NCBI GenBank assembly: GCA_963699755.1
Contig: CAVOVB010000001.1
Coordinates: forward strand, 672,001 to 736,000
From: an uncultured delta proteobacterium
GTDB lineage: Bacteria; Myxococcota_A; Polyangia; Polyangiales; Houyiibacteriaceae
Direction: 5' to 3'
Length of the DNA: 64,000 nt
The notes beneath the pieces are model-generated. The model was not told the origin of the DNA. It worked only from the letters and a program-made list of their open reading frames with translations, and did not search any database. Below are positions 17,963-35,130 of this stretch, piece by piece. Made by a program: the position numbers and the translations under genes. The stretch's first letter is position 1, and every line of letters begins with the position of its first letter.

Positions 17963-18020
17963 GAAACCTCTCCTGAAGAAGTCGCGTCTCGCAAAGAAGC
18001 GGTATGGTAAAGGCGAGCCG

Positions 18021-18629: not shown

Positions 18630-18703
18630 CAGCGGCAGGGATAGGAGCACGAGCTCTTGAGGTGCAGCGACGAAGTCATGAATGCACCCATCGGCCAAGC
18701 GGC

Positions 18704-19572: not shown

Positions 19573-20592
19573 TCAGACCGCCCCGATGGATTCGAGATGC
19601 TGACATGTGCGCTCGATGCCTTCCTCCACCGAGACGGCGGGGTCGTAGCCGAGCTCGCGGCGTGCCTTCTCGATGCTGAAGTAGTGGTGGGTGCACATGT
19701 AGCGGATCGCAAAACGCGTGAGGCCGTCTTCTGCGTTGAGGGTGCCGCCCTTGAGGGTGTCGATGCCCTCTTTGACCGCCGCAATTGCGTAGACGAGCGA
19801 CCTGGGAGCCGTGTACTTCACGGGGGGGAAGCCGAGGCGCGCGGCGACTTTGCGGATGAAGTCCCAGAATGGCATCGGTTCGCCATTGGTGATGAAGTAG
19901 GCCTGGCCGGCGGCAACGCTGTTCAAACCTTCCTTGGCGAGCGCTTGGTCGGCGAGGAGGACCGCGTCCGTCATGTTGGTCACGTAGGTGTAATCGGAAA
20001 GCCAAACACCACGCCCGATTTGAACCTGTAGCTGCCCGTTGCGACCTTTTGCAAGCAGCGTGGGCATGAAGCGGTTGTCCCCCGGACCGAAGACGACGTG
20101 CGGACGAAGGGCACAGGTCGCCATACCGCCCCTGCCGTTCTCGGCGAGCACCAGCTTCTCCGCCTCGATCTTGCTGTCCGCGTATGGGGCCTGGGAAACC
20201 GACGAGTACGGAAGACTCTCGTCGCCGTTTTCGATGTCCTTGCCCTCGTAGACCACGCTCCCGGAGCTGATGTAGATGAAACGTGGGACGCCATTGAGCC
20301 GCGCTCCTTCGAGCATGTTCTTGGTGCCGCCCAGGTTCACCGACCAAACGATGTCCTTCTTATTCTGCTTGGTGTGGACGATCGAAGCATTGTGAATGAC
20401 GCTGTCGACGCCACGGCAGGCCTCGATGACGGCAGCCTTGTCGGTGATGTCGACGCGCCTGTGCTCCACGCCCTCGACCGAGCATTCCGGCGCCAAATCG
20501 AGGACGATGACCTGATCACCCCGATCCCTGAGTGCGCGCGCAATCGCCGCGCCCAGGAAGCCACAGCCGCCCGTTACCAAACTGACAGTCAT
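19573..20592 (-). CDS. 3-beta-hydroxysteroid dehydrogenase/decarboxylase, NSDHL/Erg26-like extended SDR
   Basis: TGGCGFLG, SSGSVVYEGKDIENGDESLPY, YADSK, ALRPHVVFGPGD, GQAYFITNGEP, KARRELGY. Confidence 0.85.
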   Translation of the reverse strand: MTVSLVTGGCGFLGAAIARALRDRGDQVIVLDLAPECSVEGVEHRRVDITDKAAVIEACRGVDSVIHNASIVHTKQNKKDIVWSVNLGGTKNMLEGARLNGVPRFIYISSGSVVYEGKDIENGDESLPYSSVSQAPYADSKIEAEKLVLAENGRGGMATCALRPHVVFGPGDNRFMPTLLAKGRNGQLQVQIGRGVWLSDYTYVTNMTDAVLLADQALAKEGLNSVAAGQAYFITNGEPMPFWDFIRKVAARLGFPPVKYTAPRSLVYAIAAVKEGIDTLKGGTLNAEDGLTRFAIRYMCTHHYFSIEKARRELGYDPAVSVEEGIERTCQHLESIGAV

Positions 20593-20595
20593 GAC

Positions 20596-21282
20596 TTACT
20601 CCACCGTGCCGAAGATGATGTCGGGCAAGGGCGTGATCGAAGCGTAGTTGCCCGAAAGCATGCTGTGATGATGGCGGTCGTGGACCGCTGCGAGCTTGCC
20701 AAGGGTCTTGAACGGGAATCGAGGGCAGTCGATACCCGCATGATTGAGGATGTTGAGCGCGGTGTAAATGGTGAACAAGACAGCGAACGTGATGACGTGC
20801 ACGCCTCCGACGAACGCAAGCGAGCTGAAGAACAAGCTGAGGCCGAGAAAGGTTTCGACGGGATGCAACAAGAGGCTGTCGATCTGCCTCGGATTTCTCG
20901 CCGCGTGGTGAACAGAATGAACACCACGTAGGATCTTCCATTCATGGAATGGGTAGCGGTGCATGAAGTAGTACCCGAAGTCGTAGATCAGAATCACGGT
21001 CACTCCCTCGAGCAAGAATCGCCAAAGCGGCATGGCACGGTCGTGGTAGAGGTGCTCTCCCAATCCGAACATCACCGAAAAGATGAGGGTGATCGAAACG
21101 ACCATGTTGAGTCGAACCCTCCAACGGAGCTCGCTCTCGCTCTTCGAGCGATGGGGGTCGTCGCTGATCAGGTACTTCTGCGCTTCAGGGCTGCGGTAGG
21201 CCTTGTTGAGAACGACCTGTGCGATCCCCGCCGAGGCGTAACTGGCGAGGATGGCTATCAATGCTTTCATTTCCACCGTCAT
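20596..21282 (-). CDS. Sterol desaturase / fatty-acid hydroxylase superfamily di-iron enzyme (Erg25/Erg3-like)
   Basis: His boxes HRYPFH, HSVHH, HPVE, NHAG, HDRHHH; TM helices. Start reset to MTVEMK. Confidence 0.88.
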   Translation of the reverse strand: MTVEMKALIAILASYASAGIAQVVLNKAYRSPEAQKYLISDDPHRSKSESELRWRVRLNMVVSITLIFSVMFGLGEHLYHDRAMPLWRFLLEGVTVILIYDFGYYFMHRYPFHEWKILRGVHSVHHAARNPRQIDSLLLHPVETFLGLSLFFSSLAFVGGVHVITFAVLFTIYTALNILNHAGIDCPRFPFKTLGKLAAVHDRHHHSMLSGNYASITPLPDIIFGTVE

Positions 21283-21290
21283 CTCATCAC

Positions 21291-22454
21291 CTAGGGCACC
21301 AATCTGAGAACGAGCGTACCAGCAATCATGAAGGCGAAAACGGCAACGGCCGCCAGCCTCGACCAGGTCTTGCTGTAGGAGGATTTGACGCCTGAGGCGG
21401 CCCGGAAAGACGTCGATTCGCTGTCGAGCTCCAGAGGTTCGGCGCTCGCGGGAAAGCTTTGGCAGAGGAGCGCGACGCCCCGTGCGACGTCCCTTTCGGA
21501 GAGCGCGTCGTGCGTGCGCATGTAGACCTTGCCGGTGTTCACATGGGCCATGCAGGAGCCGCAGTACCCCGACTCGCAGGAATGGGGCGGATTCAGGCCC
21601 GCCGCTTGCGCACACTGCAAGAGGGTCTTGCCTTTCTCGTATGGAACGGTTCGAGATCGGCCGTTCATCCATAGGCTGAAGCCAGCGGGGGCCGCGAGAG
21701 ACTCGACGTGGATCGCATCCGCTTCGACCCGAGCGGGATCGGCGGGAGAGACGAAGCGCTCGATGTAGACGAGCTCCTCGTGCACCCCTGCCTCTTCGAG
21801 CGTCTCCCGGATGAGCTCCATGAAAGGCTCGGGGCCACAGATGTAACACTCGGCGACGTCGCTGTGATGGAGGAGCCCTCGCACGTCCGCTGGCTCCACA
21901 CAACCGCTCTCCGAATCGAAATGGTATCGAATGTGTAGGCGCTCGGTATGCTCTGCTGCGAGCTGCGCGAGCTCAGCGCCGTAGATGACCGAGTGCAGGT
22001 CTCGGTTGGCGTAGAGCAAAGTGATGCAGCGCTTGGTCGTCGCGAGGGCGCTCTTCAGAAGTGAAATGATCGGAGTGATTCCGCTTCCGCCGGCGAATAG
22101 GAAGAGCGGGGAGCTCGATCGAGTTTCTGGATCCAGAACGAAGCGGCCCTCGGGGATGCTTGCACGGATCGAGTCACCGACCTTCAGATTGTCGTTGAGC
22201 CAGTTGGAGATTCGACCTCCTTCTACCCTTTTTACGGCAATTTTGAGAGGTTCATCGAGGTCGGGGCAGCTCGACAAGGAATAGCAGCGCGTGACTTTGA
22301 AGTCGTCCCAAGGGAGCTCGACGGTGAGGTGCTGGCCTGATCGATACCGGTAGGCATCTCGCAGGCTCATCGGCACTCGGAGCTCGAACGAGCTGGAGTC
22401 GGCCGTCTCGCGAATGACGGCGCTGACTTCGAGCTCGTGAAACTCGACGCTCAT
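21291..22454 (-). CDS. FAD/NAD(P)H-[2Fe-2S] oxygenase reductase (KshB/PaaE-like) with C-terminal TM anchor
   Basis: RCYSLSS, GGSGITP, YICGP, CESGYCGSC...LLCQ; hydrophobic tail LAAVAVFAFMIAGTLVL. Confidence 0.88.
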   Translation of the reverse strand: MSVEFHELEVSAVIRETADSSSFELRVPMSLRDAYRYRSGQHLTVELPWDDFKVTRCYSLSSCPDLDEPLKIAVKRVEGGRISNWLNDNLKVGDSIRASIPEGRFVLDPETRSSSPLFLFAGGSGITPIISLLKSALATTKRCITLLYANRDLHSVIYGAELAQLAAEHTERLHIRYHFDSESGCVEPADVRGLLHHSDVAECYICGPEPFMELIRETLEEAGVHEELVYIERFVSPADPARVEADAIHVESLAAPAGFSLWMNGRSRTVPYEKGKTLLQCAQAAGLNPPHSCESGYCGSCMAHVNTGKVYMRTHDALSERDVARGVALLCQSFPASAEPLELDSESTSFRAASGVKSSYSKTWSRLAAVAVFAFMIAGTLVLRLVP

Positions 22455-23134
22455 GGCTCTTCTTCCAAACCAGCCCTCTCGAGAGCTGCGGCCAGATGCT
22501 CTGGTTTGCAGTAGCTCCTGAGCAGATGCCTGAGCGCCGCATCGGCTAGGCGACTAGAGTCTTCCTTGCATCCTCGATCCATCCACATCGCCAACCGTGC
22601 TTGCTGCGCCGCGATCATCATCCTTGCCATGAGCTCCGGATCGTCATCGACGAGATACCCGTCTTCGATGCAGCTCCGGAAGAGGCTCGCGACGAGATCC
22701 AAACCGACCCCGAGTGCCTCGACCTGTTCGGGGCTGCGTAGCAGCTCGATCGTCGACCAGGCGGTGACTTCCTTGAGTTGCATCTTGGTGAAGTCGAGGT
22801 GCTCCATGAAGAAGGACAGCTGCGTTCGAGTTCCGGCGATGAGGATGTCGAGCGAAGACATCTCTTTTTGAAGAACGTCTTGTGTGCGGAGCATGACCTC
22901 GCCCAAGCGCCGGCGGTGCACGGCGCGGTAGATCTCCCACTTGGAAGGGAGCACGCTGTAGAGCGTGGTCAGCGAGACCCCTGCCTCGGCGGCGATCCGC
23001 TGCACTTTGGTGGCCTCGTAGCCCTCCTGGCCAAACACCCGTTCCGCGGCGTCGAGGACGGCCTCGCGATAGAGCTCGCGCTTCCTATCCTTCAGGGATT
23101 CTTGGGCTTTTGCGGCTGCGGCGCTCGTTGACAC
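22451..23134 (-). CDS. TetR/AcrR family transcriptional regulator
   Basis: N-terminal HTH VLDAAERVFGQEGYEATKVQRIAAEAGVSLTTLY. Confidence 0.92.
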   Translation of the reverse strand: MSTSAAAAKAQESLKDRKRELYREAVLDAAERVFGQEGYEATKVQRIAAEAGVSLTTLYSVLPSKWEIYRAVHRRRLGEVMLRTQDVLQKEMSSLDILIAGTRTQLSFFMEHLDFTKMQLKEVTAWSTIELLRSPEQVEALGVGLDLVASLFRSCIEDGYLVDDDPELMARMMIAAQQARLAMWMDRGCKEDSSRLADAALRHLLRSYCKPEHLAAALERAGLEEEP

Positions 23135-23182
23135 GGTTGGGTCGGAATGATAAGGGCGAAAATCAGAATGTCAATTCCGATT
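23128..23182. promoter_or_regulatory. Overlapping divergent sigma70-like promoters with TetR operator palindrome
   Basis: Minus strand: TTGACA(23174-23169)-16 bp-TATCAT(23152-23147). Plus strand: TTGACA(23128)-17 bp-TAAGGG with upstream TG. Palindrome AATCAGAAT-gtca-ATTCCGATT at 23161-23182. Confidence 0.7.
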
Positions 23183-24760
23183 TCGGCGGAGACCGAATCT
23201 GCACCTTCCGCGCCGGCTAGCCAGATCCCATGTGTCGACCCGGCGACGCGAGAGCGACTTGGAGCGATTCCCGTCGACTCTCCTGAGGACGTCGCTGCCG
23301 CCGTGGCGCGTGCCAAGGTCGCGCAGAAAGCTTGGCGTAGGACTTCGTTCGAACAGCGACGCGAGCTTCTGCGGCGGCTGCTCGCATTCACGGTCGATCA
23401 GAAGGACGAGATCTGTCTCGCGGTGCAGCGCGACTCCGGTAAGACCCGAGAAAACGCGCTGATGGGGGAGATCTGGCCAACCTGCGAGAAGTTTCGCTGG
23501 ATGATCAAGAATGGCGAGAAGTATCTTCGCCCCGAACGCGTCTCGTCTGGCTTGCTGCTCCATAAGACGGCGCGCCTCGAGTATCACCCGCTCGGTGTCA
23601 TCGCCGCAATCATTCCCTGGAACTATCCGTTCCAGAACATCGTCAACCCGGTGATCCCGGCTCTGATGTCGGGAAATGCAATCGTCCTCAAGCCATCGGA
23701 GTGGGTGGCCTGGTCGAGCGACAAGTTCGTCCAGGCGCTTCAAAAGGTCGTCGAAGAAGCGGGACACAATCCGGATCTGATTCAGGCGGTGCAAGGGTAC
23801 GGACCCACCGGCGCAGCACTCGCTCGCTCTGCGGTCGATTCGATCCTGTTCATCGGCTCGGTTCGCAACGGGCGTCGCGTCATCGAAGCCAGCGCGGAGC
23901 GGGTTGTCCCGGTCGTCATGGAGCTCGGCGGCAAGGACGCTTTCATCGTCTGCGATGATGCGGATCTCGAACAGGCAGTCCATGCCTCGCTCGCTGGTTG
24001 CTACATCAATTGCGGACAGAACTGCGTCGCTTCGGAGCGAATTTTGGTCTACGAGGACATCTACGACGCCTTCGAAAAGCGAGCCGCAGAGCTGGTTCGA
24101 GAGTTTCGACAGGGCAGCAGCCGTGAGGGCGTTGTCGATGTCGGCGCGATCGTCACGCCCCTACAGCTCGACGTGATCGAGATGGCGGTCGATGGGGCGA
24201 TCGCCGAGGGTGCTCGGGTCATCACCGGGGGCAAACGCGTGCTGAGCGACAAGGGTGATTACTTCGAGCCGACCATCTTGGCAGACGTGACGCCAGAGAT
24301 GGACATCGCACAGGAAGAGGTCTTTGGCCCGGTGATGCTCTTGATGCGCGTACGAGATGATGCGCATGCGGTCGAGGTCGCAAATGGGGTGGCGTACGGC
24401 CTCTCGTCGTCGGTTTTTTCCAAGAACCGCTCGCGGGCTCGCAAGATCGCCTCGGAGCTCGAAGCCGGCATGAGCGCGATCAACGAGTTCGGCGGAATCA
24501 CGTACATGGCGCAAGGACTCACCTTCGGTGGCGTGAAGGCTTCGGGATACGGTCGAATGAACGGTCGTGAAGGCTTGCGTTCGATGTGCAACATCAAGGC
24601 GGTCGTCGATGATCGCTTGCCGATCAACAAAGCCAACCGGGTTTTCCCGGTCGCTGAGAAGGACTATGGCGTTTTCAGTGCTGTGATCGAGCTGATCTAT
24701 GGCAAGAGCCTCGCGCAGCGATGGCGTGGCTTGCTGAAGCTGTTGGGCCGAAAGCGCTGA
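23168..24760 (+). CDS. Aldehyde dehydrogenase (resembles ALDH family 15/22)
   Basis: PWNYP, KPSE, FIGS, MELGGKD, catalytic GQNC, EEVFGP, FGGVKASG. Confidence 0.93.
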   Translation: MSIPISAETESAPSAPASQIPCVDPATRERLGAIPVDSPEDVAAAVARAKVAQKAWRRTSFEQRRELLRRLLAFTVDQKDEICLAVQRDSGKTRENALMGEIWPTCEKFRWMIKNGEKYLRPERVSSGLLLHKTARLEYHPLGVIAAIIPWNYPFQNIVNPVIPALMSGNAIVLKPSEWVAWSSDKFVQALQKVVEEAGHNPDLIQAVQGYGPTGAALARSAVDSILFIGSVRNGRRVIEASAERVVPVVMELGGKDAFIVCDDADLEQAVHASLAGCYINCGQNCVASERILVYEDIYDAFEKRAAELVREFRQGSSREGVVDVGAIVTPLQLDVIEMAVDGAIAEGARVITGGKRVLSDKGDYFEPTILADVTPEMDIAQEEVFGPVMLLMRVRDDAHAVEVANGVAYGLSSSVFSKNRSRARKIASELEAGMSAINEFGGITYMAQGLTFGGVKASGYGRMNGREGLRSMCNIKAVVDDRLPINKANRVFPVAEKDYGVFSAVIELIYGKSLAQRWRGLLKLLGRKR

Positions 24761-26340
24761 TGGACCAGTTCGACTACATCGTGGTTGGGGGCGGATCAGC
24801 AGGCTGCATCGCAGCCGCTGAGCTCGCGGGTGATCCTCGGTATCGCGTGCTCCTACTGGAGGGCGGACCCAGGGCCGAGGAGCACCCCGAAACCCTGGTC
24901 GCGGACGGCTACAAAGAGGCATTCGTCAACGATGCCGTGATGGGAGAGCGGTTTTCGGTTCCGCAGGCCCACGCCGGCAAGCGGCGAATCTTCGCTGGTA
25001 CCGGGACCGTGATGGGCGGCAGTGGTTCTGTGAACGCCATGGTCTACACGCGTGGCTCGCGCGAGGACTACGCAGAGTGGCCTGAGGGCTGGCACTGGGA
25101 CGACAATCTCGCTGATTTCCGCGCGATCGAGGAGACGCTTCGACCACATCGACGCCCTGCGACCGCCTGGACCGAAGCCTGCATCGCTTCGGCGGAACAG
25201 CACGGCTTCACCCGGAAAGAAGACCTCAACGACGGCAACATGAGCAACGTCATCGGCTACGAGTGGATGTCCTACGAGGGCGAGAACCGTCGAAGCTCCT
25301 ACGTGGCGTTCATCAAGGACGCCGGCGCACGTCCGAATCTCACCGTCGTCACGGGCGCCCTCGCCCATCGGGTCGTGTTCACGGGCGAGAAGCTGGCCCG
25401 TGCGGTCGAGTTCGAACATGCGGGTGCGCTCCAGCGGGCGGAGGCGAGCAAAGAGATCGTACTTTGCGCCGGCGCACTGGAGACCCCGAAGCTGCTCATG
25501 CTCTCGGGCGTGGGTCGGAGCGAACACCTGCGGACCTTCGACATCCCCCTGGTTGCCAATAGGCCAGCAGTCGGAGACGGGCTTCACGATCACCCGAACG
25601 TGCCCGTCTTCTTCCAGGCCGAGAAGGGCATCGACTGCTTCTATCCGCAGCTCTACAGCTTTTTCCGTACCAACCACGCGAGCGACCTTCCGGCCTCGCA
25701 GAGCGACACTTGCTATGTGTACTGGCCGGCTCCTTCGGCGATGCAGCAGATGATGGAGCGCATGCTGCCGCCGATGGCGGTCCCGCATGGGCTCTACGGC
25801 CCGCGATCGCGACAAATGGTGCGCGGCATGGTGGGCACCGCGTTCAAGCTCGGCGCTGTACGACGTTTCACCGACCGGATGTTCGGGATCATCTTGATCC
25901 TCGGGAAGCCAAAGAGCCGCGGCACGCTGCGTTTGCAGTCGACCGACGTGCGCCGCCAGGCGCTCATCGATCCGGCCTATTACTCGGACCCGGAGGACAT
26001 GGAGACGATGGTCAGAGGCGTTCGGATTGCCAAAGCGATAGGTGCTTCGGGCGGGCTCGCGGAATGGGGGGCCAAGGAGCTCATGCCTGGCAAGCGGGTC
26101 CAGAGCGATGAGGCCATCGCCAACTACGTCCGAAAGAACACGATTACGACCTATCACGTCGCCGGAAGCTGCAGCATGGGTGTCACCGAAGCGCACGCGG
26201 TCGACCCTCAGCTCCGCCTGCGAGGCGTCACGGGTCTGCGAATTGCGGATGCTTCAGTGATCCCTTGGACGCCGGTTTCCGCGCTCAACGCCCCGAGCAT
26301 GCTGATCGGCTATCGCGCCGCGAAGCTCATCCGGAGCTGA
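24760..26340 (+). CDS. GMC family FAD oxidoreductase (alcohol dehydrogenase/oxidase)
   Basis: DYIVVGGGSAG, GGSGSVNAMVYTRG, LMLSGVG, YH...SCSMG, LRIADAS; TGATG coupling with the ALDH. Confidence 0.92.
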   Translation: MDQFDYIVVGGGSAGCIAAAELAGDPRYRVLLLEGGPRAEEHPETLVADGYKEAFVNDAVMGERFSVPQAHAGKRRIFAGTGTVMGGSGSVNAMVYTRGSREDYAEWPEGWHWDDNLADFRAIEETLRPHRRPATAWTEACIASAEQHGFTRKEDLNDGNMSNVIGYEWMSYEGENRRSSYVAFIKDAGARPNLTVVTGALAHRVVFTGEKLARAVEFEHAGALQRAEASKEIVLCAGALETPKLLMLSGVGRSEHLRTFDIPLVANRPAVGDGLHDHPNVPVFFQAEKGIDCFYPQLYSFFRTNHASDLPASQSDTCYVYWPAPSAMQQMMERMLPPMAVPHGLYGPRSRQMVRGMVGTAFKLGAVRRFTDRMFGIILILGKPKSRGTLRLQSTDVRRQALIDPAYYSDPEDMETMVRGVRIAKAIGASGGLAEWGAKELMPGKRVQSDEAIANYVRKNTITTYHVAGSCSMGVTEAHAVDPQLRLRGVTGLRIADASVIPWTPVSALNAPSMLIGYRAAKLIRS

Positions 26341-26433
26341 TCCGCGCCTGGATGAATCCGCGCACAGGGACTCGCGTCGGATGTTCAAACAAATCGATTG
26401 CAGTAGCAACGCGCCTTCCCCATAGGAAGATCC

Positions 26434-27453
26434 ATGACCAAAGCCAAGCACCTCTTCATCGCCGTCCTAGCCCTGGGCGCCTTCATGCTGCCAGGGACTG
26501 TTTCCCTACCCCAGGCGAACGCTGCCTCCTCGACGATCATTCGCTTTGCATCTCTCGCACCCCCCGGCTCGGCGTTCATGAAGTTGATGAAGGCTTGGAA
26601 CCGGAGCCTGAAGACCGAAACCGAAAACCGAGTCGAGCTTCGCTTCTACTCGGGCGGGAGCCAAGGCGACGAGCGCGACTTCATCCGCAAGGTGCGCGCG
26701 GGGCAGATGGACGCGGCCGGAGTCACGACCACGGGCCTTGGAATGGTCGCGCGTCCGGTTCTGGTTCTGACCGCACCCGGAATGATCACCGAATACGCGC
26801 AGCTCGAACGCGCGCGCGAGCAGCTGGGCGAGCGATTCTCCAAGTTGTTCAGGGAAAATGGGTTTGTCATGCTGGCTTGGGGAGAGGCCGGTAAGAACCG
26901 CATTTTTTCCATGGAAAAGTTTGCGAAACCCGATGACTTGAAGCGGCTCCGACCCTGGGCATGGAAAGACGACCCGGTTTTCGCCGGCTATGTCAGCACC
27001 ATCGGCGCGAATCCGGTGCGCATGGGCGTGCCCGAAGTCTACGGAGGTTTGCAGACGCGAATGCTCGACACCGTGCCCGCCTCGGCGCTCGCTGCTGTCG
27101 CGCTCCAGTGGTACACGCGCCTCAACTACATGGCGAAGGAGAACTTCGGCATCATCATCGGCGGCTCGGTCATCAAGCAGGAGAAGTTTGATCTGCTGAG
27201 TGAGCATGATCAGAAAGTGCTGATGGACACCAGCGAGCGCGCCGCACGAGCCGGCGACGTGATGGCACGCCGGGACGACGAGCGGGCCTATGCTTCACTG
27301 ATCAAGCGCGGCATGGTCGAAGTGGACACCGCTGCCTACCAGGCCGAATGGGACGCCGTCGCCAAGAAGACGCGCGAAAGCCTGACCGGTCGGGTCTACA
27401 GCAAGAGCCTCCTCGAAGCCGTCGAGAAGGTCGTAGCGGGCGAGCCTAACTAG
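26434..27453 (+). CDS. dctP: TRAP transporter substrate-binding protein DctP (TatP-like)
   Basis: IRFASLAPPGS, GDERD, GQMD, VPEVYGGLQT; signal peptide. Confidence 0.85.
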   Translation: MTKAKHLFIAVLALGAFMLPGTVSLPQANAASSTIIRFASLAPPGSAFMKLMKAWNRSLKTETENRVELRFYSGGSQGDERDFIRKVRAGQMDAAGVTTTGLGMVARPVLVLTAPGMITEYAQLERAREQLGERFSKLFRENGFVMLAWGEAGKNRIFSMEKFAKPDDLKRLRPWAWKDDPVFAGYVSTIGANPVRMGVPEVYGGLQTRMLDTVPASALAAVALQWYTRLNYMAKENFGIIIGGSVIKQEKFDLLSEHDQKVLMDTSERAARAGDVMARRDDERAYASLIKRGMVEVDTAAYQAEWDAVAKKTRESLTGRVYSKSLLEAVEKVVAGEPN

Positions 27454-28286
27454 CCCAATTCGTCACGGAGAAACCGAAGCGAGAGCTCATTGAAGAGCTT
27501 CGGGTATTCGACCATGACCCAATGGCCGCAGCGGGAAATCAGCATCGTGCGTGAGTTCGCACAGCGGCTCGCGATTTTGGCCGCACCGCTCGAAGGACAG
27601 AACTTGTCATTGGCGCCCCAGAAGCAGAGCACCGGACACTGAATCTCGGAGAGCCTGTCTTCCTGGTTCGCAACGTGGATGCGGGCAATGTTGTCCCGGT
27701 GTTGCGTCATCGCGATCTGAAATCGCTCTTCGATCACCTCGTCGGTGATCTTCGATTCGTCATGAAGCTGCAGCGTGAAAACCTTGCGCATGGTTTCCTT
27801 GCTGATGCCCTCTTTGAAGAGGACGCGAATCATCGCTTTGATCCCCTCCATCTCCATGTAAGTCTCTCGCGCTTCGAGGCCGCCCGGCGCCATCAAGACG
27901 AGCTTCTCGACCAGCTCCGGATAGTTGAGCGCCATCGTGATGGCGATCGCTCCGCCCTGTGAGTTGCCGATGACGGCGGCGCGCTCGACAGCGAGGGAGT
28001 CGAGGAGGCCCTTGTACTGGGCGGCGACGTCGTCGAGGCTGAACACCCCGTCTTCAGGCTTGGTCGAATAGCCGTAGCCCATCGTGTCGGGCACGATTGT
28101 TCGGTAGCCCTGCTCGGCGAGGAAGGGGTAGTTCCCCTTGAAGTTACTCCAACCGCTGGCGCCTGGACCGCTGCCGTGGACGAACAAGACGACGCCACGT
28201 TCCCCGCTGCCGGCCTCGTGGTAGTGCATCGTGATGCCCTTACCGGTGTCGGCGTATCTTCCCTCGGGAACTGCTTCTACGACCAT
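27450..28286 (-). CDS. hsaD: Meta-cleavage product (C-C) hydrolase, HsaD/BphD/MhpC-like
   Basis: HGSGPGASGWSNF, GNSQGG, WGANDKF, CGHW. Confidence 0.8.
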   Translation of the reverse strand: MVVEAVPEGRYADTGKGITMHYHEAGSGERGVVLFVHGSGPGASGWSNFKGNYPFLAEQGYRTIVPDTMGYGYSTKPEDGVFSLDDVAAQYKGLLDSLAVERAAVIGNSQGGAIAITMALNYPELVEKLVLMAPGGLEARETYMEMEGIKAMIRVLFKEGISKETMRKVFTLQLHDESKITDEVIEERFQIAMTQHRDNIARIHVANQEDRLSEIQCPVLCFWGANDKFCPSSGAAKIASRCANSRTMLISRCGHWVMVEYPKLFNELSLRFLRDELG

Positions 28287-28302
28287 GCTTCGGACCTCGG
28301 AA

Positions 28303-28316
28303 TAGAACGTGTTCTA
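28303..28316. promoter_or_regulatory. KstR-type operator palindrome TAGAACGTGTTCTA
   Basis: Exact fit to TnnAACnnGTTnnA with perfect 6-bp arms; lies about 17 bp upstream of the hsaD-like start. Confidence 0.65.
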
Positions 28317-28350
28317 GCGCAGGGACCGGGAGCGGTCCAATCACGGCGCC

Positions 28351-29271
28351 TCAGTCCTTTTTGCCCTTCGCTTCTTTGGCGCGCCGGTAGGCCTTGGTGA
28401 GGAGCTGCGGAGGATGATGCCCCCACTCGCTGACCTTGTCGTGGGTCATGCTCTTCCAACCCTCTCCGATTTCGATGGCCCCAGCGCCGAACTCGAAGTG
28501 AAAACCGGAGGGCGTGTACCCGTAGAACGAAAACATCTTGTCGTTGGGGTGCCGCCCCAGGGTTTGGTGAACCATCCCGCCGGAGAAGAGGAAGCGATCG
28601 TAACACCTGCCGACTTCATCCAGCGTCTTGGACTGCACCATGAAGTGGTGAATGCGCTTGAGCTGCCCGCCACCGAATGCAAGCGAGTGATGCCGCGCGT
28701 TGGCGTGCATGAAGGTGACGTTGATCTCGTGCCCAAAGTACTCACAACGAATGTAGTCGCTGAGCTCGAGCCCGAAGATGCTCGCATAGAACTGTTCCTG
28801 CTTCGCGTCGTCTTTGGAGACGACGACGACGTGTCCAAAACCCTGTTCGTCCGCGACGAAACCCGAAGCGACGACTTCGGAGAGGAACGGCTCGTCGGCC
28901 ATCCTGGGACCGTAGAAGATCTCGATCGGGTTCCCAGCCGGATCACTTGCTCGAACGAGCGCCTGAACGTTTCGCCTAGCGGCGTCGTCCTGGCTAGCCT
29001 CGACGACCTCGTGTCCGGCACGTTTGAGGCTTTGGACGATCTCTTCGAGCGCCGCGGGGCCTTCGACCTCCCAGCCGACCGCCGCCAGGTCGTCCGCCGG
29101 CCCCTTCTCGATGAAGAAGCGCTGCTGATAGCCATCCATGCGTAGAGAAAAACCGCTATCACCGCGCCGATCGACCAGCTGGAGACCAAGAATCTTGGTT
29201 CCGAAATTCTCCCACGCCGCGAGGTCGCTGACCTCGAAGACCAAGTATCCCGCTTGCTTTACCGCAGCCAT
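28351..29271 (-). CDS. hsaC: Extradiol ring-cleavage dioxygenase, HsaC/BphC-like (VOC fold)
   Basis: GFGHVV, HHSLAF, HHFMVQ, LGRHPNDKMFSFY..TPSGF.FEFG, SEWGH. Start reset to MAAVKQ. Confidence 0.82.
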   Translation of the reverse strand: MAAVKQAGYLVFEVSDLAAWENFGTKILGLQLVDRRGDSGFSLRMDGYQQRFFIEKGPADDLAAVGWEVEGPAALEEIVQSLKRAGHEVVEASQDDAARRNVQALVRASDPAGNPIEIFYGPRMADEPFLSEVVASGFVADEQGFGHVVVVSKDDAKQEQFYASIFGLELSDYIRCEYFGHEINVTFMHANARHHSLAFGGGQLKRIHHFMVQSKTLDEVGRCYDRFLFSGGMVHQTLGRHPNDKMFSFYGYTPSGFHFEFGAGAIEIGEGWKSMTHDKVSEWGHHPPQLLTKAYRRAKEAKGKKD

Positions 29272-29324
29272 TTGCCTTGCCTCCGGCCGCATCATAGTAC
29301 GGAGGCCGCATCTGGCTACGGAGA

Positions 29325-30032
29325 ATGTTGATGAAATCCACCGCAACGGCGAGAGGGCCCACGGTCCCGACTGCAGCAGTCATCGCAACCGTCGTCGTCG
29401 TCGGCACGCTGTTCCACACCTGGCTGCACCAGCGCGAGCACGGCATCTACAACATTACGCAGATCGGCTTGGCGTTCTTCCTGGTGATCAACATGATGAT
29501 CGCGTGGTGGGAGATCGCGTTGTTCGTCTGCCAAGATCAGATTCACGCCGAGTACGAGGCCACCAAGGAACCTTACCGCGGACGCGAGCTGCAACGAATC
29601 GGAGAGATCTTCGCGCGCCGCATCCCGCTGTTGCGCGTTTTCTCCTTCAGCGAGTGGACGACGATTTGGTCGGGCTATTCGCTCTTCGACCCGGGGTACT
29701 CCGACCGACGCTCGTTCGGCTACAACATCGACGTAGGCAACGGCTTCACGACCCTGATTCCGGCAACCCTATTCGCATTCGGCATGACCTTCGAGCTGAT
29801 GCCAGCGCGCTGGCTCGGCATCATCGGCGTGGTCATGTTCTGGCAGATGTTCTACGGAACCTCGGTTTACTTTTTCCAGTTCTTCAACAACGGCCGCCAC
29901 GAAGGCCACTCGCTCAGGGACCTCCTGCTCTTCGTCGGCATCACCAACCTGATGTGGCTCGTATTTCCGATCTGGGGGCTCTGGACGAGCATCCAGCTGA
30001 TTCTGAGCGGCTCCTACGGCCTCTTTCTCTAG
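29325..30032 (+). CDS. EBP/EXPERA-like membrane protein, putative sterol delta8-delta7 isomerase
   Basis: WSGYSLFDPGY, QMFYGTSVYF and FVGITNLMWLVFP parallel EBP motifs WxEYxxxDxRY, GQxYGxxLYF and NxxWxxxP. Confidence 0.6.
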   Translation: MLMKSTATARGPTVPTAAVIATVVVVGTLFHTWLHQREHGIYNITQIGLAFFLVINMMIAWWEIALFVCQDQIHAEYEATKEPYRGRELQRIGEIFARRIPLLRVFSFSEWTTIWSGYSLFDPGYSDRRSFGYNIDVGNGFTTLIPATLFAFGMTFELMPARWLGIIGVVMFWQMFYGTSVYFFQFFNNGRHEGHSLRDLLLFVGITNLMWLVFPIWGLWTSIQLILSGSYGLFL

Positions 30033-31408
30033 ATCGCGCGCCGGTCTCTCGATTTCAGCATCATTTTCTGCATCTGCTTGAAGTCGGCAACGGCATCCTG
30101 CTCGTCGGTCGAAAACGGATAGTCGGCGCCGATCGAATGGGCAACGACCAGCCCGGACATGAAGGACAAGTCGTGTCCGCCCTCTGGAGTCGTGAACGTA
30201 CCGCAGTAGTAGAGCCCGTCCTTCCCCTGAAGGTGTCGCATCATCGACATGATGATGAGGTTCCCCAGCGAGACGCTGTGGGTGGGATGGGGCAGCTCGA
30301 TCCGTTTCTGAGCTCGCTCGATCGGCCGCTTCGCGTTGAAGGTGACCAGCATCGGCACACCCTGGTCCTTGGTGCTCGGGTTCTGGGCCGAGATGACGAA
30401 AGTGCACTCGAGCTCGCCCGCTTCATCGATTTGCGAATAGGTGTTGTACCCGGAGAGGATCTTGTCGCGATGTTCCCCGGGGAAGATGCTCGTGTCGGAG
30501 TGAACGATGAAGCTGGAGAACGTCGGATCGACGTCGTCTACGTACTCAGCCCTGCTGAAGAGGAGCCTCTGAAGCCAGCTGGGAGATTCGAGCGCGTCGA
30601 GCACCGAGGTCGCATCACAGGCGAAGACCACCTCATCGGCTTCGTAGCTCCGCCCTCTTGCATCAGCGAGGATGTACCGACCGTTTCTCCGTTTCACGCT
30701 CGTGATTTCGTGGTCGCAGTGCACCCGATCCGAAAATCGCGCCGTCATGCGGTCGAAAACCTGCCGGGGCGCGCCTTGCCAGGTTCCCATCTGCGTAGGC
30801 TCTTCGAGAGGTACGATGCTTTCGAGCAAGGGCAGGATCACCGCGGGAACCCCGCGCATCGAAGTCGTGATGAAGCTCGCGCAGTGGATCGGAACGAAGA
30901 TCGTGTCCCAGAAGTCGCGCGAGATCCCAAAGAGCCGGGCCATCCAGTAGAGCGGGATGAAGTTGAGCGGGTTGAAATACGAGAAGTGGTAGAGAGAGTC
31001 GTGTTTGTTTCTTGGCAGGAAGAAATCGTTCACCTTGCTGACGAAGGCGACGAGCCGCTTCCACCGGCGAAACTCGGGCGCGAATCGCTGCTGGAGCGCG
31101 GTTTGCCCGTCCTGGCAGAAGTGCCCCTCGGGGGTCTGCACGAAGTATGAGATGGGCAAGGTTTCGATTCCGACGCCTAGCTGCTGCAGGAGCAGCTCGT
31201 AGTTGTGGTAGTACATCTGCGGCCAGGCGACGACGAGGAGGGGCGAGTCCGCATGGCCTCGATCGGTGCGCCAGCGAAAGGTCTTCGCGTTGCCGCCGAG
31301 CGCAGGGCCCTTCTCGAAGATGTCTACCTCGTAGCCCGAGCGGCTGAGCGACCAGGCCGCGCCAACCCCGGCGATACCCCCTCCAACGACCGCTATCTGC
31401 TTGGTCAT
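30029..31408 (-). CDS. FAD/NAD(P)-binding oxidoreductase (amine-oxidase/COG2907-like)
   Basis: IAVVGGGIAG...FEK...LGGNA dinucleotide fold; C-terminal YYCG...GGHD..SG. Confidence 0.8.
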   Translation of the reverse strand: MTKQIAVVGGGIAGVGAAWSLSRSGYEVDIFEKGPALGGNAKTFRWRTDRGHADSPLLVVAWPQMYYHNYELLLQQLGVGIETLPISYFVQTPEGHFCQDGQTALQQRFAPEFRRWKRLVAFVSKVNDFFLPRNKHDSLYHFSYFNPLNFIPLYWMARLFGISRDFWDTIFVPIHCASFITTSMRGVPAVILPLLESIVPLEEPTQMGTWQGAPRQVFDRMTARFSDRVHCDHEITSVKRRNGRYILADARGRSYEADEVVFACDATSVLDALESPSWLQRLLFSRAEYVDDVDPTFSSFIVHSDTSIFPGEHRDKILSGYNTYSQIDEAGELECTFVISAQNPSTKDQGVPMLVTFNAKRPIERAQKRIELPHPTHSVSLGNLIIMSMMRHLQGKDGLYYCGTFTTPEGGHDLSFMSGLVVAHSIGADYPFSTDEQDAVADFKQMQKMMLKSRDRRAI

Positions 31409-31431
31409 ACGGCTCTCCCCAATCTCCTTCG

Positions 31432-32676
31432 CTACGCCCGCTTTGGTACCAAATCGACGATCGGCCCGTGGCGCAAAGTGTGACAGAGGCCTTTGTAGAT
31501 GCCGAGCGATTCGTAGACCGCCGCGGTCATCATCACCGTCCGGGTCTGCCCGATGATCGTGAATGGGAAGCCGCTGTGCAGAAAGGCAAACGAAAGCCGG
31601 TGCTCGGGGTTCGCCCAACCCCCAGCTCCACCTAACCCGAAATGTCCGAAGGCCGCCGGGACGTCCATCAGGAAAGCGTCGGTTCGGTGATAGCCGAGCT
31701 TCCAATGAAGGGGATAGATCGTGACCCTGTCGGCGCGCCTAGTTTGGACCTCGGACGCTTTTCGAACGACTTCTTCGGAGACCAGCCGGACGCCGTCGAG
31801 CTGGCCGCCCATCGAAAGCGGCGCGTACAACTTGGCGAGCGAACGCGCGGTCGCGACGCCGTTCATCGCAGGCAAGCAGGCCTTCCAAAACGCCGGATGC
31901 GAAAAGAGCTCCTTGGCATTTCGCGGAGTAATTCCGCGGCGACAGAGATCGCGCATCTGATTGGAGCGGACCCAGAAGGGCACGCGGTAGTCGATCCTGA
32001 GAGGCAGAGCGCCGTGCCGCTGGAGCTCAGGCAAGCCCACGAAGTCGGGTATGCGATCCATTTGGCTGTCCGCGTCGCCGATGTACAGCCCGTCGAGGTC
32101 GAGAGGTTTGACGATTCGTTGCTCGATGAACTCCGACACCGTGAGGCCAGAAATGCGGCGAATCAGCTCGCCCACGAGCCAACCAAAGGTGAGCGCCTGA
32201 TAGGCGTTGGCCGTGCCGGGGTGGAAGTCCGGCTCGATCTTGGCAAGGCGCGAGACGATGAGGTCCCAGTCGAGGATGTCGGTAAGCTGCTCCACGACAT
32301 GGACGACCTTGTGAAGGCCTGCCTGGTGCGAAAGGACTTGCCGGACGGTGATCTCCTGCTTGCCATTGCAGCCGAACTCTGGCCAATAGTCGGCGACCGG
32401 CGCCTCGTAGTCGATGAGACCTTCGGTCGCCAGCACGTGGATCGCGGTCGAGGTGATTCCTTTCGTGCCTGAGTAGCAGATCGACATCGTGTCTCGCTGC
32501 CAGCGCGCGCCGTCTTTCCGCGCAGACCCCGCCCAGATGTCGACTACGGGCTTGCCTTCGATGAACACCGCCGCCGAGGCACCTCCGCCGTACTGCTTGA
32601 TTTGCTTCCGCATCAGCTTCACGACCGGCTCGAATCGTGGCTCGTATGCGCCATATATCTCGATCTTCGTAGACAT
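31432..32676 (-). CDS. Serine hydrolase, beta-lactamase-related esterase
   Basis: VVDIWAG, SGTK (SxxK), LSHQAG, FGHFGLGG. Confidence 0.88.
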   Translation of the reverse strand: MSTKIEIYGAYEPRFEPVVKLMRKQIKQYGGGASAAVFIEGKPVVDIWAGSARKDGARWQRDTMSICYSGTKGITSTAIHVLATEGLIDYEAPVADYWPEFGCNGKQEITVRQVLSHQAGLHKVVHVVEQLTDILDWDLIVSRLAKIEPDFHPGTANAYQALTFGWLVGELIRRISGLTVSEFIEQRIVKPLDLDGLYIGDADSQMDRIPDFVGLPELQRHGALPLRIDYRVPFWVRSNQMRDLCRRGITPRNAKELFSHPAFWKACLPAMNGVATARSLAKLYAPLSMGGQLDGVRLVSEEVVRKASEVQTRRADRVTIYPLHWKLGYHRTDAFLMDVPAAFGHFGLGGAGGWANPEHRLSFAFLHSGFPFTIIGQTRTVMMTAAVYESLGIYKGLCHTLRHGPIVDLVPKRA

Positions 32677-32703
32677 CAGCTCCGTCCTGGGTAGCGCACC
32701 GGG

Positions 32704-33513
32704 CTAGATCGGTCCAAAGAACGCCGCGGCGAAGTCCAATAGGAAGATCATGATCAGGCTCGCGGTGCACGCTGCGGCCGCCGTCATCGGCAGGCTCCAA
32801 TTCTTGTTACGCTCCTCGTCGATCCAGCAAAAGATCGGGAAGCTCGCTACGAAGTAGAGCGAATAGAAAAGGGAGCCGTACGTGAGCATTCGCTCCAGGT
32901 CCTTGTAGTAGAACTGGCTCTCCATCCAGGGGTTCGCCATGGCCTTGGTTTCCATCCAGGCCCAAAAATAGGCGATGCCGAGGACCAGGATCGGCCACGC
33001 CAGGGCGCCGCTCGGAATCCGGGAGGTGCGGATGCGCCTGAGGACGATGACCGCGGTCGTGTGATAGGTGAGAAAGTACGCCTGGGTGAGCAGATACATG
33101 ATCAACGGCACCCGTTGTTCTCCGGAGCCCACGAGCGCCGAATCGAGATTGAGCTCGATCATCGGGTAGTCGTAGACCATCCCGAGCACGTCGAAGAAGT
33201 ACTCGGTGCCGAAGTAGTTGGCCGCGAAGTTGAAGATCGCAATGTAGAGGTTCGCTTTGAACCAGTAGGTCTGGTACCAGCGTCGCCCGATGGGCTTCTC
33301 GTCGCGAATGAGGGCTGGGATCGCCGCCAGGGGCAGCGCGACGGCGACACCAATCGCCATGAAGCCCCACTCGCCCACACGATCGGTGACGCCGAGGCCC
33401 ATCACGAGCCCCATCATCGTCATCCAGACCGGCGAGTAGGCGAGGAAGAACCTCTCGCCCCAGGCCTTGCTGGGGTTTGCCGAGAACCAGCGCGGGACGA
33501 CAGCGCGCGTCAT
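32704..33513 (-). CDS. cpi1: Cycloeucalenol cycloisomerase (cyclopropyl sterol isomerase) homologue
   Basis: WFSANPSKAWGERFFLAYSPVW, YWFKANLYIAIF, NYFGTEYFF.VLG..Y and YH...LRR match plant CPI1 motifs. Confidence 0.85.
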   Translation of the reverse strand: MTRAVVPRWFSANPSKAWGERFFLAYSPVWMTMMGLVMGLGVTDRVGEWGFMAIGVAVALPLAAIPALIRDEKPIGRRWYQTYWFKANLYIAIFNFAANYFGTEYFFDVLGMVYDYPMIELNLDSALVGSGEQRVPLIMYLLTQAYFLTYHTTAVIVLRRIRTSRIPSGALAWPILVLGIAYFWAWMETKAMANPWMESQFYYKDLERMLTYGSLFYSLYFVASFPIFCWIDEERNKNWSLPMTAAAACTASLIMIFLLDFAAAFFGPI

Positions 33514-34889
33514 GCGGCCCGGCGGCGATATCGAATCCGAATGGGCGGCTTGGGCCCGAGGACCAGGCCCTGGAAGTCGGTTTCAATCGGATCGCCAGCG
33601 AGCTCGAAATCATAGCGATTGAGCAAGACCGCGATGATCGTTTTGATCTGCAAGATCGCGAAGGCGTTCCCCATGCACTTGTGTCGACCACCGCCAAAAG
33701 AGATGTACGCGAACGGGCGCTTGTCCTCTTCGCGTCCGGGGCCGTAGCGGTCCGGATCGTACTCGAGTGCGTTCTTGAACACTTCCTCGTCCCGATGCGC
33801 AATCATCGGCGAGACCGCCACCCAGTTCCCCTTCTTCACCCGATAACCCAAGATTTCGCAGTCCTCGAGCGCCGCTCGGAGAAGGATGAAGAGCGGCGGA
33901 TGGATGCGGAGGGCCTCTTTCACGGCGCCTTCGGTCTTCTCGAGGTCGCGAAGAGACTCGAAGCTGTATTGCTCGGCGTCCGCGTAGCGCGCGTGGATTT
34001 CGCGTTGCACTTCCTCGAGGAAGCGCGGGTGCCTCAGGAGCTCGACTAGGGTCCAGGCGGTCGTGACGGAGCTCGTGTGGTGCCCGGCAAACATGGCAGC
34101 GACGAGCATACCGGTGATCTCGTGGTCGCTGAGCTTGCTCCCATCCGAGTACTCCGCGTCCATCAGCGTCTGCAAGAAGTCTTCGCCCCGGTAGCCGGAC
34201 TGCTTTCGCTTCTCGACGATTTCGGAAACCATCTCCCCAAGCCGGGCGCGCGCCCTGTCCCGACGCCGAAAAGCAGGGAGCGGTAAGTACGGATGGATAT
34301 AGCCCCAGGCGACGATGCCTCGCTCGAGATCGTAGTAGACCTTCGAGAACTCCGCGCTCATCTCATTGCGGAACTCTTTGCCGAGCAGGCAGCTGCTCGA
34401 CGTGTAATTGGTGAGCATGCCGAAGAATTGGCTCGCCTCGATCTCGCCTTGCTCGCCCCAGTCGGCAAGAACGTCTAGGGTCTCTTTGGCCACGATTTCG
34501 GTGTAGGTGCGCATGCGATTGTTGCGCAGCGCCGGGTAGAGCATGTGCATCTGCTCTGCCATTTTCGCGGGCTCGGCTCCGTAGGCGACCCCCTCGCCAA
34601 AGACGGGAACCATCATCTTGTAGGCCGCGTTAGGACTGAGGACTTCGTCGGGCTGCCTGAACAGGGCCTCGTGCGCCGCCGGTCCGGTGAAGAGAATCAT
34701 GTCCTTGCCGAAGAGCTTGAATCGACCGACCCGCCCACACTCGTCGTAGGTCCGCTGGAGCAAGCCGATCGTGTCCTTCACGAAGGCCATGGTGTGACCG
34801 ACCAGCGGAAGCCCGCCCTTGAGCTTGGGAGGCCTCTTGAGCTTGCCGGCGGTCATGGTCGTAGTGGCGCTCTGTGCTCTTGCTGTCAC
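33510..34889 (-). CDS. cyp51: Cytochrome P450, sterol 14-alpha-demethylase CYP51
   Basis: PVFGEGVAY, MFAGHHTSS (CYP51 I-helix), EALR, FGGGRHKCMG heme Cys; AGGAG RBS. Confidence 0.92.
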   Translation of the reverse strand: MTARAQSATTTMTAGKLKRPPKLKGGLPLVGHTMAFVKDTIGLLQRTYDECGRVGRFKLFGKDMILFTGPAAHEALFRQPDEVLSPNAAYKMMVPVFGEGVAYGAEPAKMAEQMHMLYPALRNNRMRTYTEIVAKETLDVLADWGEQGEIEASQFFGMLTNYTSSSCLLGKEFRNEMSAEFSKVYYDLERGIVAWGYIHPYLPLPAFRRRDRARARLGEMVSEIVEKRKQSGYRGEDFLQTLMDAEYSDGSKLSDHEITGMLVAAMFAGHHTSSVTTAWTLVELLRHPRFLEEVQREIHARYADAEQYSFESLRDLEKTEGAVKEALRIHPPLFILLRAALEDCEILGYRVKKGNWVAVSPMIAHRDEEVFKNALEYDPDRYGPGREEDKRPFAYISFGGGRHKCMGNAFAILQIKTIIAVLLNRYDFELAGDPIETDFQGLVLGPKPPIRIRYRRRAA

Positions 34890-34938
34890 CCTGGGCTCCT
34901 AGTCGGTCGCATGGTATCTGGGAACGGAAGGAGCTCCA

Positions 34939-35130
34939 ATGCGAATCAAAGCGGATTTCGATCTTTGCAAGGGACACGCCAACTGCATGGGCGAAGCCCC
35001 CGAGGTCTTTGAGGTGGATGACAATGGCTACCTCAACATACTTCAGGAAGAGCCGCCCGAAGAGCTGCGCGAACAAGTCGAGCTCGCGGTCAAGCACTGT
35101 CCCACGGGCGCCCTCAGCCTCGAAGGCTGA
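34939..35130 (+). CDS. [3Fe-4S]-type ferredoxin, probable CYP51 redox partner
   Basis: CKGHANC...CPTGAL; GAAGGAG RBS; divergent from cyp51. Confidence 0.9.
   Translation: MRIKADFDLCKGHANCMGEAPEVFEVDDNGYLNILQEEPPEELREQVELAVKHCPTGALSLEG

Follow-up and report, generated by a model that had tools for sequence, protein, structure and literature searches.

The stretch of DNA analysed here, referred to as the window, comprises 64,000 nucleotides (positions 672001-736000 of contig C1) of an uncultured myxobacterial genome designated G000, and its subject is a locus at window positions 19573-35130 in which sterol-tailoring genes lie together with two genes resembling those for steroid ring cleavage. 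(Handles of the form G### denote genomes and L### fetched loci; congeners are the 54 genomes of the same genus.) In order, genes for a 3β-hydroxysteroid dehydrogenase (HSD), a hydroxylase, a reductase and a TetR regulator, all on the minus strand, are followed on the plus strand by those for an aldehyde dehydrogenase (ALDH), a GMC oxidoreductase and a DctP protein. Next come hsaD, a KstR-type box and hsaC (minus), an EBP-like gene (plus), genes for a FAD protein, an esterase, a cyclopropylsterol isomerase (CPI) and CYP51 (minus), and a ferredoxin gene (plus), and all of these open reading frames are intact. The parts listed in a preliminary description of this DNA (CYP51, ferredoxin, CPI, EBP-like protein, hydroxylase, NSDHL-like enzyme, hsaC- and hsaD-like genes, box, esterase and DctP protein) all fall within these limits, but that list overlooked the Fe-S reductase, the TetR regulator, the ALDH, the GMC oxidoreductase and the FAD oxidoreductase. 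The reading towards which we lean is that the locus forms a front end that unblocks scavenged 4-methyl, 14-methyl and 9β,19-cyclopropyl sterols for 9,10-seco catabolism.

The two ring-cleavage genes tie the locus to steroid catabolism mainly by context. The dioxygenase (28351-29271, minus strand; PF00903/PF22632), a type I extradiol enzyme assigned as an HsaC ortholog, is the only copy found in G000, and the meta-cleavage product hydrolase (27450-28286, minus strand), assigned as an HsaD ortholog, scores 187 bits with the HsaD model and 170 with the BphD model, both below cut-off; the genome holds no close paralog of either. Orthologs of hsaD at 58-63% occur in hsaA-C-D-E operons, and in the seven sister-genus loci with the closest orthologs the arrangement is hsaA-C-D-E in five, hsaA-C-E in one and C-D-E in one, where the upstream side is cut off. 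In three congeners whose locus is without hsaD (G017/G094, G025/G092 and G033/G100), the ortholog stands directly after hsaA. A KstR-type palindrome (28303-28316, no strand assigned) lies 17 bp before hsaD and is the sole exact match in the window; it is kept in 23 of the 26 relatives' loci that have hsaD. The box reported in the preliminary description is therefore present, but before hsaD only. Across G000 there are 48 occurrences of the palindrome pattern, whereas six other spacer lengths give 12-24 each, and a refined pattern, partly circular since it was derived from its own matches, gives 24 sites, including sites before kstD, kshA, kshB, hsaA, hsaD, echA20 and a flavin reductase gene. 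One-mismatch matches in the window (18 versus 7.8 expected) were discarded, being mostly within coding sequence.

By sequence alone, the dioxygenase might suggest a different function. It scores 298.5 bits with the BphC model (cut-off 366) and 221.7 with the HsaC model (cut-off 450), so that it fails the HsaC equivalog score and lies outside the NCBIfam HsaC family. Its best matches in the PDB and among plasmids are BphC-type, and a quick tree of 33 rows places it apart from actinobacterial HsaC, its nearest named rows being a dibenzofuran-plasmid-type enzyme and a BphC. Together with a hydroxylase that matches none of the solved structures in the PDB, this would suit a locus that serves two separate purposes: a non-steroid aromatic would be the substrate of the dioxygenase and hydrolase, and some other lipid or terpenoid that of the hydroxylase module. 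We consider such a locus highly improbable, however: no ring-hydroxylating dioxygenase (Ring_hydroxyl_A), and hence no biphenyl-type upper pathway, was found in G000, and this genome, which carries hsaA and HIP genes, has no second copy of either enzyme that could serve the steroid pathway instead. The operon context of the orthologs, the single copy, the KstR-type box before hsaD and the missing ring-hydroxylating dioxygenase are the grounds on which the dioxygenase is assigned to steroid catabolism, where it is predicted to work like HsaC. The comparison of HsaC with BphC proposed in the preliminary description thus falls on both sides, sequence and tree being nearer to BphC and context favouring the steroid role.

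The remainder of the degradation pathway is encoded elsewhere in G000. This genome (5.35 Mb in 11 contigs) is rated 100% complete and 9% contaminated; contig C7 is 83% identical to C1 over 288 of its 436 kb and is probably a co-binned sister organism, which would account for the contamination, and genes on C7 were accordingly discounted from pathway counts. Raw counts of nine kshA and two hsaA were inflated by C7 and fall to seven and one without it. KstD-like (592 bits) and HsaA-like (410 bits) proteins are present, both below curated cut-offs, as are the seven KshA-like proteins, one of whose genes adjoins a kshB candidate. G000 further encodes FadD19, Ltp thiolases, a KstR-like regulator and, together with hsaA, homologs of hsaE/G/F; for hsaB, the candidate is the flavin reductase gene preceded by a KstR-type box. 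A cluster at C2:255-275 kb, assigned to the degradation of 3aα-H-4α(3′-propanoate)-7aβ-methylhexahydro-1,5-indanedione (HIP), contains FadD3 (761 bits, above the cut-off of 657), EchA20, an IpdC-like protein and a CoA-transferase pair. With the 9,10-seco set (KstD, KshA/B, HsaA, HsaC, HsaD, HsaEFG) and the HIP cluster both found, G000 is shown, as far as gene content can show it, to encode a near-complete 9,10-seco catabolic gene set. As a side observation, a Rieske oxygenase of the KshA family, divergent from the KshA-like proteins of G000 (30-36%), lies beside TetR-CYP51 in three loci (L018:6186-7175, L032:6324-7316 and L054:6738-7757); this locus variant carries the other CYP51 type, and the oxygenase is a candidate 9α-hydroxylase for unusual sterols.

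Genes for making sterols, on the other hand, were not found. With congener proteins as queries, neither the window nor the rest of G000 gave a match to oxidosqualene cyclase (OSC), squalene epoxidase (SQE) or HMGS, and squalene synthase (SQS) gave only an 87-residue fragment at 30%, so that the combination of SQS, SQE and an OSC with the DCTAE motif by which de novo synthesis would be recognised is missing from the matches in G000. Hits to PF13243 (28 bits) and PF08491 (23.5 bits) were rejected as OSC and SQE, both being weak partial matches with no motif. The preliminary description had noted the lack of both genes in the window and had inferred a catabolic route, proposing a genome-wide search for osc/sqe against kstD, kshA, hsaAB and HIP genes; that search found the degradation genes and not the synthesis genes, which supports its inference.

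Among relatives, 20 of the 54 congeners have OSC, as do 26 of the 33 genomes from other genera of the family. In all eight of the congener regions examined, OSC is part of a cassette that also holds mevalonate genes and, where the contig extends far enough, SQS/SQE; the flanks of the cassette vary between genomes, and in one case both are neighbours in G000. In L104-L111 the mevalonate-SQE-SQS-OSC cassette sits at varying chromosomal sites, sometimes with its own CYP51, and behaves like a movable unit. In each of the 12 congener cyclases read, the residues equivalent to human 449 and 453 are His and Val and the one at 381 is not Tyr, which we take to be the signature of a lanosterol-type cyclase; if so, CPI would have no self-made substrate in the congeners. 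It may be asked whether the tailoring genes are mere relics that outlast a recent and repeated loss of the OSC cassette, with the hsaC/hsaD linkage as inherited synteny. The patchy distribution of OSC, synteny data that come mostly from one genus and a CYP51 that groups with the cassette copies (98 support, in a quick tree only) would agree with this. Nevertheless, a relic is distinctly improbable, as every reading frame is intact and, of the 27 congeners at least 95% complete, the 16 without OSC all retain CPI and CYP51 (and 15 of them FadD3). Moreover, lanosterol-type cyclases have no need of CPI, and the CPI of the genus groups with those of Pseudomonadota and Chloroflexota (SH-like approximate likelihood-ratio support, SH-aLRT, 91, unstarred) and separately from a second CPI clade of the family.

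The right half of the locus carries the genes for CYP51, its ferredoxin, CPI and the EBP-like protein. CYP51, a sterol 14α-demethylase (33510-34889, minus strand), is the only CYP51 found in G000; it has its best PDB matches among bacterial CYP51s (E 2e-140), is nearest to solved CYP51s and retains the heme-binding Cys motif. The small ferredoxin assigned to it (34939-35130, plus strand; an open reading frame of 63 aa) is encoded divergently, outside the CYP51 operon, and a homolog of it is fused to CYP51 in Pseudomonadota loci. CPI (32704-33513, minus strand), a homolog of cycloeucalenol isomerase, is homologous over its full length to proteins of that name at 43-47%, among them a Hondaea protein named cycloeucalenol cycloisomerase (43%, E 2e-53), although those names are automatic annotations; it has no Pfam match and is predicted to open the 9β,19-cyclopropane. 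The preliminary description spoke of plant-type enzymes, which is true of CPI and of no other part. In L071:779-3555, from a cyclase-bearing Myxococcota metagenome-assembled genome (MAG), CPI, an ALDH (46% to that of the window) and a sterol methyltransferase occur together. The EBP-like membrane protein (29331-30032, plus strand; model pLDDT 85), of the EBP/EXPERA fold, is a putative sterol Δ8-Δ7 isomerase: its predicted fold has human EBP as best match (TM 0.53, E 0.017, 16% identity), it belongs to an Atlas cluster in which 20% of the proteins carry EBP, and it has no Pfam (PF05241) match. Its gene is divergent from hsaC, with 59 bp between them. No operator shared by CYP51, CPI and the EBP-like gene was found.

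The left half, in turn, is a putative C4-demethylation module. The membrane di-iron hydroxylase (20596-21282, minus strand; PF04116, His boxes conserved) belongs to the sterol desaturase/methyl oxidase family and is a putative C4-methyl hydroxylase, its substrate being proposed from family and context. The FAD/NAD/[2Fe-2S] reductase with a hydrophobic C-terminal tail (21291-22454, minus strand; PF00970, PF00175, PF00111) is its putative electron donor; the reductase gene is immediately upstream of the hydroxylase gene in all five sister-genus loci, and a distinct kshB candidate adjoins a kshA elsewhere in G000. The GMC oxidoreductase (24721-26340, plus strand; PF00732/PF05199) and the ALDH (23147-24760, with a possible start at 23168, plus strand; PF00171) are assigned to the putative steps from 4-hydroxymethyl to 4-formyl and from 4-formyl to 4-carboxy, respectively. 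The ALDH gene has the same direction as the hydroxylase gene in G065, G066, G068, G039 and G364, and the GMC gene is linked to it in G068, G039, G415 and G080. The NSDHL/ERG26-like 3β-HSD (19573-20592, minus strand; PF01073, E 1e-62), a putative C4-decarboxylase, has human NSDHL as its best PDB match (E 1e-36; second match 1e-18) and scores 81.5 bits with the SdmB model, for which the cut-off is 600. The TetR regulator (22451-23134, minus strand; PF00440) is conserved with the module, and a conserved inverted repeat between its gene and that for ALDH (window 23139-23180), which may overlap the ALDH start, is a candidate operator for it.

These six genes form one module, in that they travel together, although their order varies between genomes. 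ALDH, HSD, reductase and hydroxylase genes are consecutive in G065 and G066, ALDH-GMC-reductase-hydroxylase stand together in G068 with TetR and HSD divergent, and reductase and hydroxylase alone are paired in G059 and G074; in the Pseudomonadota MAG G039 four module genes (GMC-ALDH-hydroxylase-HSD) are consecutive. All six are present in 19 of 20 fetched congener regions, the twentieth genome carrying an intact copy elsewhere, and the hydroxylase was found in 49 of the 54 congeners. Outside the genus, hydroxylase orthologs at 58% or more occur in seven of the eight FadD3-positive family genomes and in none of the 25 FadD3-negative ones, and four of those seven have no cyclase. G068 (99% complete) has the six-gene module, hsaACDE and FadD3 and no OSC, CPI or CYP51 match. 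In a sample of 301 genomes of the phylum, seven outside the family matched, two of which show the module, and FadD3 scored above cut-off in three of the five outside-family genomes with matches that were tested. The gene set would fit a sequence from methyl to alcohol, aldehyde and acid followed by decarboxylation; this would yield a 3-ketosteroid, the substrate with which KstD begins. We regard the module as a candidate new C4-demethylase.

CPI was found in 51 of the 54 congeners, CYP51 in 52 and FadD3 in 44; among 51 congener-type loci, a few of them from one genome, hsaC is near CPI in 28 of the 30 long enough, with hsaD near it in 21 of 27 and CYP51 in 38 of 41. The linkage is conserved in relatives, contrary to one of the conditions that the preliminary description named as refuting its proposal. 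Seven Pseudomonadota MAGs have CPI at 55-63% and none of them a cyclase match (completeness unstated); a CYP51-ferredoxin fusion lies beside CPI in six, FadD3 is above cut-off in four, hsaA occurs in three and an hsaC-like gene in four. G059 (94% complete) has CYP51-CPI-Fdx-ERG24, hsaACDE and FadD3 and no cyclase, and one of the two ERG24-family proteins of G000 shares 65% identity with its ERG24. In the family around G038, CPI was found in two of 12 genomes, which is uninformative as genome quality is unstated. In three of the Pseudomonadota loci (L058, L060 and L062), a zinc alcohol dehydrogenase gene follows CPI, and then a PF00756 esterase gene in L058 and L060; the two enzymes resemble a formaldehyde detoxification pair and could handle C1 products of demethylation.

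Close relatives of G000 are uncultured Polyangiales/Myxococcales MAGs, and the sequencing runs in which at least 30% of the locus words occur come from two studies of sediment metagenomes; they contain near-identical pieces of the locus, none spanning it whole. An assembly artefact is ruled out by these pieces and by the recurrence of the gene order in many congeners. The G+C content of the locus is slightly under that of the window flanks, and this together with its genus-wide conservation rules out a recent horizontal island, the term used in the preliminary description. Short pieces matching many locus genes occur in RNA run X12, which is no demonstration of transcription.

Three further genes complete the locus. 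The esterase (31432-32676, minus strand; PF00144) is LipL-like (288 bits, cut-off 650) and a putative steryl-ester hydrolase, its substrate being suggested by sequence family and neighbours. The FAD-dependent oxidoreductase of the amine-oxidase family (30029-31408, minus strand) has a weak PF01593 match and LkcE as best PDB match (E 2e-18), and one locus variant is without it. The DctP-family solute-binding protein (26434-27453, plus strand; PF03480) is regarded as accessory; G000 has at least 11 paralogs of it, and it is missing from the loci of several relatives. Immediately left of the locus are a broken-looking sulfotransferase-family-like gene (18662-19565, plus strand; two frames, middle missing, 42-47% to intact paralogs), intact relatives of which separate TetR from ALDH in several congeners, and a gene for a linalool dehydratase/isomerase domain protein (16301-18100, minus strand; PF18566, E 1e-36), with no counterpart in the relatives' regions examined. 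The window further contains genes for poly-γ-glutamate synthase PgsB and an associated system protein (9512-12505, minus strand), both above cut-off, and three DUF1592/DUF1552 gene pairs (12678-16294, 41378-44481 and 47618-50721). Insertions in the loci of single relatives encode an MMPL/sterol-sensing-domain transporter (L050:2043-4472) and a FadL-type outer-membrane protein (L055:10875-12239).

The argument that such groups block degradation follows, for C4 and C9, from the established chemistry of HsaA and KshA. The C4 methyls sit on the carbon that is hydroxylated by HsaA, and a cyclopropane or a Δ8(9) bond leaves no C9 hydrogen for KshA. In the proposed order, the esterase would free the sterol; the hydroxylase and its reductase would hydroxylate the C4 methyl, which the GMC oxidoreductase and ALDH would oxidise to the acid; and the NSDHL-like enzyme would decarboxylate this acid to the 3-ketone, with some short-chain dehydrogenase/reductase, to which no gene is assigned, resetting the 3-hydroxyl between demethylation rounds. 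CPI would then open the cyclopropane to give the Δ8 sterol, CYP51 with its ferredoxin would remove the C14 methyl, an ERG24-family reductase encoded elsewhere on contig C1 would reduce the Δ14 bond, and the EBP-fold protein would shift Δ8 to Δ7, thereby restoring the C9 hydrogen required by KshAB. Finally, KstD, KshAB, HsaAB, HsaC, HsaD, HsaEFG and the HIP enzymes would mineralise the rings. The structures of HIEC-CoA (provisional) and COCHEA-CoA, as given in Crowe 2017 (PMC5380842), carry a C8=C14 bond, and PMC6678751 contains the title of work on an 8(14)-ene metabolite; extended to 14-methyl sterols, these structures suggest that a 14-methyl group would forbid that bond.

The main competitor of this catabolic front end, and not exclusive with it, is sterol salvage, in which de novo synthesis was lost and scavenged protosterols are remodelled into a cholesterol-type lipid, the hsaC/hsaD linkage merely reflecting shared induction by sterols. 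Several observations weigh against the catabolic reading, some of them in the direction of salvage, in addition to the grouping of CYP51 given above. Outside the locus, G000 encodes two ERG4/ERG24-family reductases and a DHCR24-like protein, which is enough for finishing a cholesterol-type sterol; at C1:873073-873585 (L124:9074-9586) a gene for a small Ras-family GTPase (PF00071, E 9e-25) adjoins that of an ERG4/ERG24-family reductase. The refined-pattern scan found no KstR-type box before CYP51, CPI, the EBP-like gene or the C4 module. The frequency of OSC in the rest of the family suggests a sterol-making ancestry, and G101 (99% complete) has kept the C4 module and OSC, with no FadD3, hsaD, CPI or CYP51 found. 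Similarly, G415 has the module and no FadD3, in G080 (66% complete) CYP51-CPI-Fdx-ERG24-HSD-ALDH-GMC is accompanied by a cyclase homolog but not by FadD3, and three CPI-bearing Chloroflexota/Binatia MAGs have neither a full cyclase nor FadD3. Of the 20 OSC-bearing congeners, one CYP51 was found in 11, at least two matches in eight and none in one, so that a single CYP51 may serve synthesis in those 11. The hydroxylase could also be a C5-desaturase or another hydroxylase, and the genomes compared are kin, which makes the counts non-independent.

Even so, we regard salvage as unlikely. Finished sterols are, as a matter of general knowledge, more easily scavenged than protosterols, the close hydroxylase orthologs track FadD3 rather than OSC, and G068 holds the C4 module without a CYP51 match. 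Furthermore, hsaC has left its ancestral hsaA-C-D-E operon and now shares the short divergent region with the EBP-like gene. A coupling of synthesis with turnover, the alternative offered in the preliminary description, does not fit G000 but is possible in the 20 OSC-bearing congeners. It is likeliest that one toolkit is used for synthesis in some lineages and for scavenged sterols in others. That aerobic steroid degraders of Myxococcota and Pseudomonadota carry a dedicated route for unblocking protosterols and 4-methyl sterols, comprising an undescribed C4-demethylase and a degrader clade of CPI, is a wider proposal that we put forward tentatively and at somewhat less than an even chance.

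Parts of this proposal have precedents. The idea that CYP51 acts on exogenous sterols in degraders is already in print: Lee, Giner, Welander 2026 (PMC13277303) describe CYP51 in sterol degraders, suggest modification of exogenous lanosterol and cite a Mycobacterium that converts lanosterol to a C19 8(14)-steroid, while two titles in their reference list (1991 and 1995) concern C19 steroids from cycloartenol and lanosterol in whole-cell work. The Cyp51-ferredoxin-8,14-Bsr clusters described there resemble the present locus in pairing CYP51 with its own ferredoxin in sterol-degrading bacteria, and in several congeners and Pseudomonadota MAGs CYP51 and CPI are separated by the gene for an NTF2 protein resembling Bsr. 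Bsr-like queries, taken to be Bsr on the basis of fold, motif and position, gave no match in G000, where ERG24-family and EBP-fold genes are present in place of Bsr; replacement of Bsr by the FAD oxidoreductase is unsupported, as both are present together in some loci. The parts of that article covered here make no mention of CPI, of a C4 module in degraders or of hsaC/hsaD linkage.

The 9,10-seco pathway, as set out in Crowe 2017 and Holert 2018 (PMC5790920), is matched in kstD, kshAB, hsaA/C/D/EFG and the KstR-type palindrome, and further in fadD3, echA20, ipdC and CoA-transferase homologs. The differences are a Myxococcota host ("Myxo" and "delta" being absent from the main text of Holert 2018), the separation of hsaC/hsaD from hsaA and their union with tailoring genes, and scores that for most G000 proteins lie below actinobacterial model cut-offs. 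Syntenic myxobacterial tailoring sets of the same families (CYP51, ERG24, ERG25-27, CPI1) have been described (Hoshino and Gaucher 2021, PMC8237579); the tree in that article is of species with a protosterol pathway, whereas no OSC, SQE or SQS was found in G000, where the context is catabolic. The SdmAB/SdmABC system (PMC10202945) and eukaryotic SMO/ERG25-ERG26-ERG27 likewise combine oxidation of the C4 methyl with subsequent decarboxylation by a 3β-HSD-family enzyme. Unlike SdmAB, the locus has no Rieske gene for SdmA, three other Rieske proteins scoring about 78 bits against 600 for SdmA; it appears instead to use a di-iron hydroxylase, a dedicated Fe-S reductase and separate GMC and ALDH enzymes, with no ketoreductase in the module. 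A literature search of main texts, with few subscription journals, found no 9,10-seco genes in Myxococcota, no CPI in a degrader and no such C4 module; supplementary trees of Cyp51, Osc and ERG25 papers may hold these sequences. Within that search, the CPI, the C4 module and the fusion of hsaC/hsaD with tailoring genes in a myxobacterium had no printed counterpart.

The locus is a warning against taking tailoring genes as the mark of sterol synthesis: CYP51 occurs in 52 and OSC in 20 of the 54 congeners. A survey of Myxococcota MAGs (10.1101/2024.11.01.621555) gives 145 Cyp51 versus 121 Osc sequences and reads the extra Cyp51 lineages as possible synthesisers. The locus supplies testable genes for the older whole-cell observation of C19 steroids, adds a proposed bacterial route to those for C4 demethylation, and bears both on the debate whether eukaryotic sterol genes came from myxobacteria and on the survival of 4-methyl and 14-methyl sterol biomarkers in sediments. 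If the wider proposal of a dedicated unblocking route is true, much of the CYP51, CPI and ERG25/26-like content of environmental myxobacteria would serve catabolism, and sediments would hold a specific biological sink for sterols of the dinosterol and cycloartenol types.

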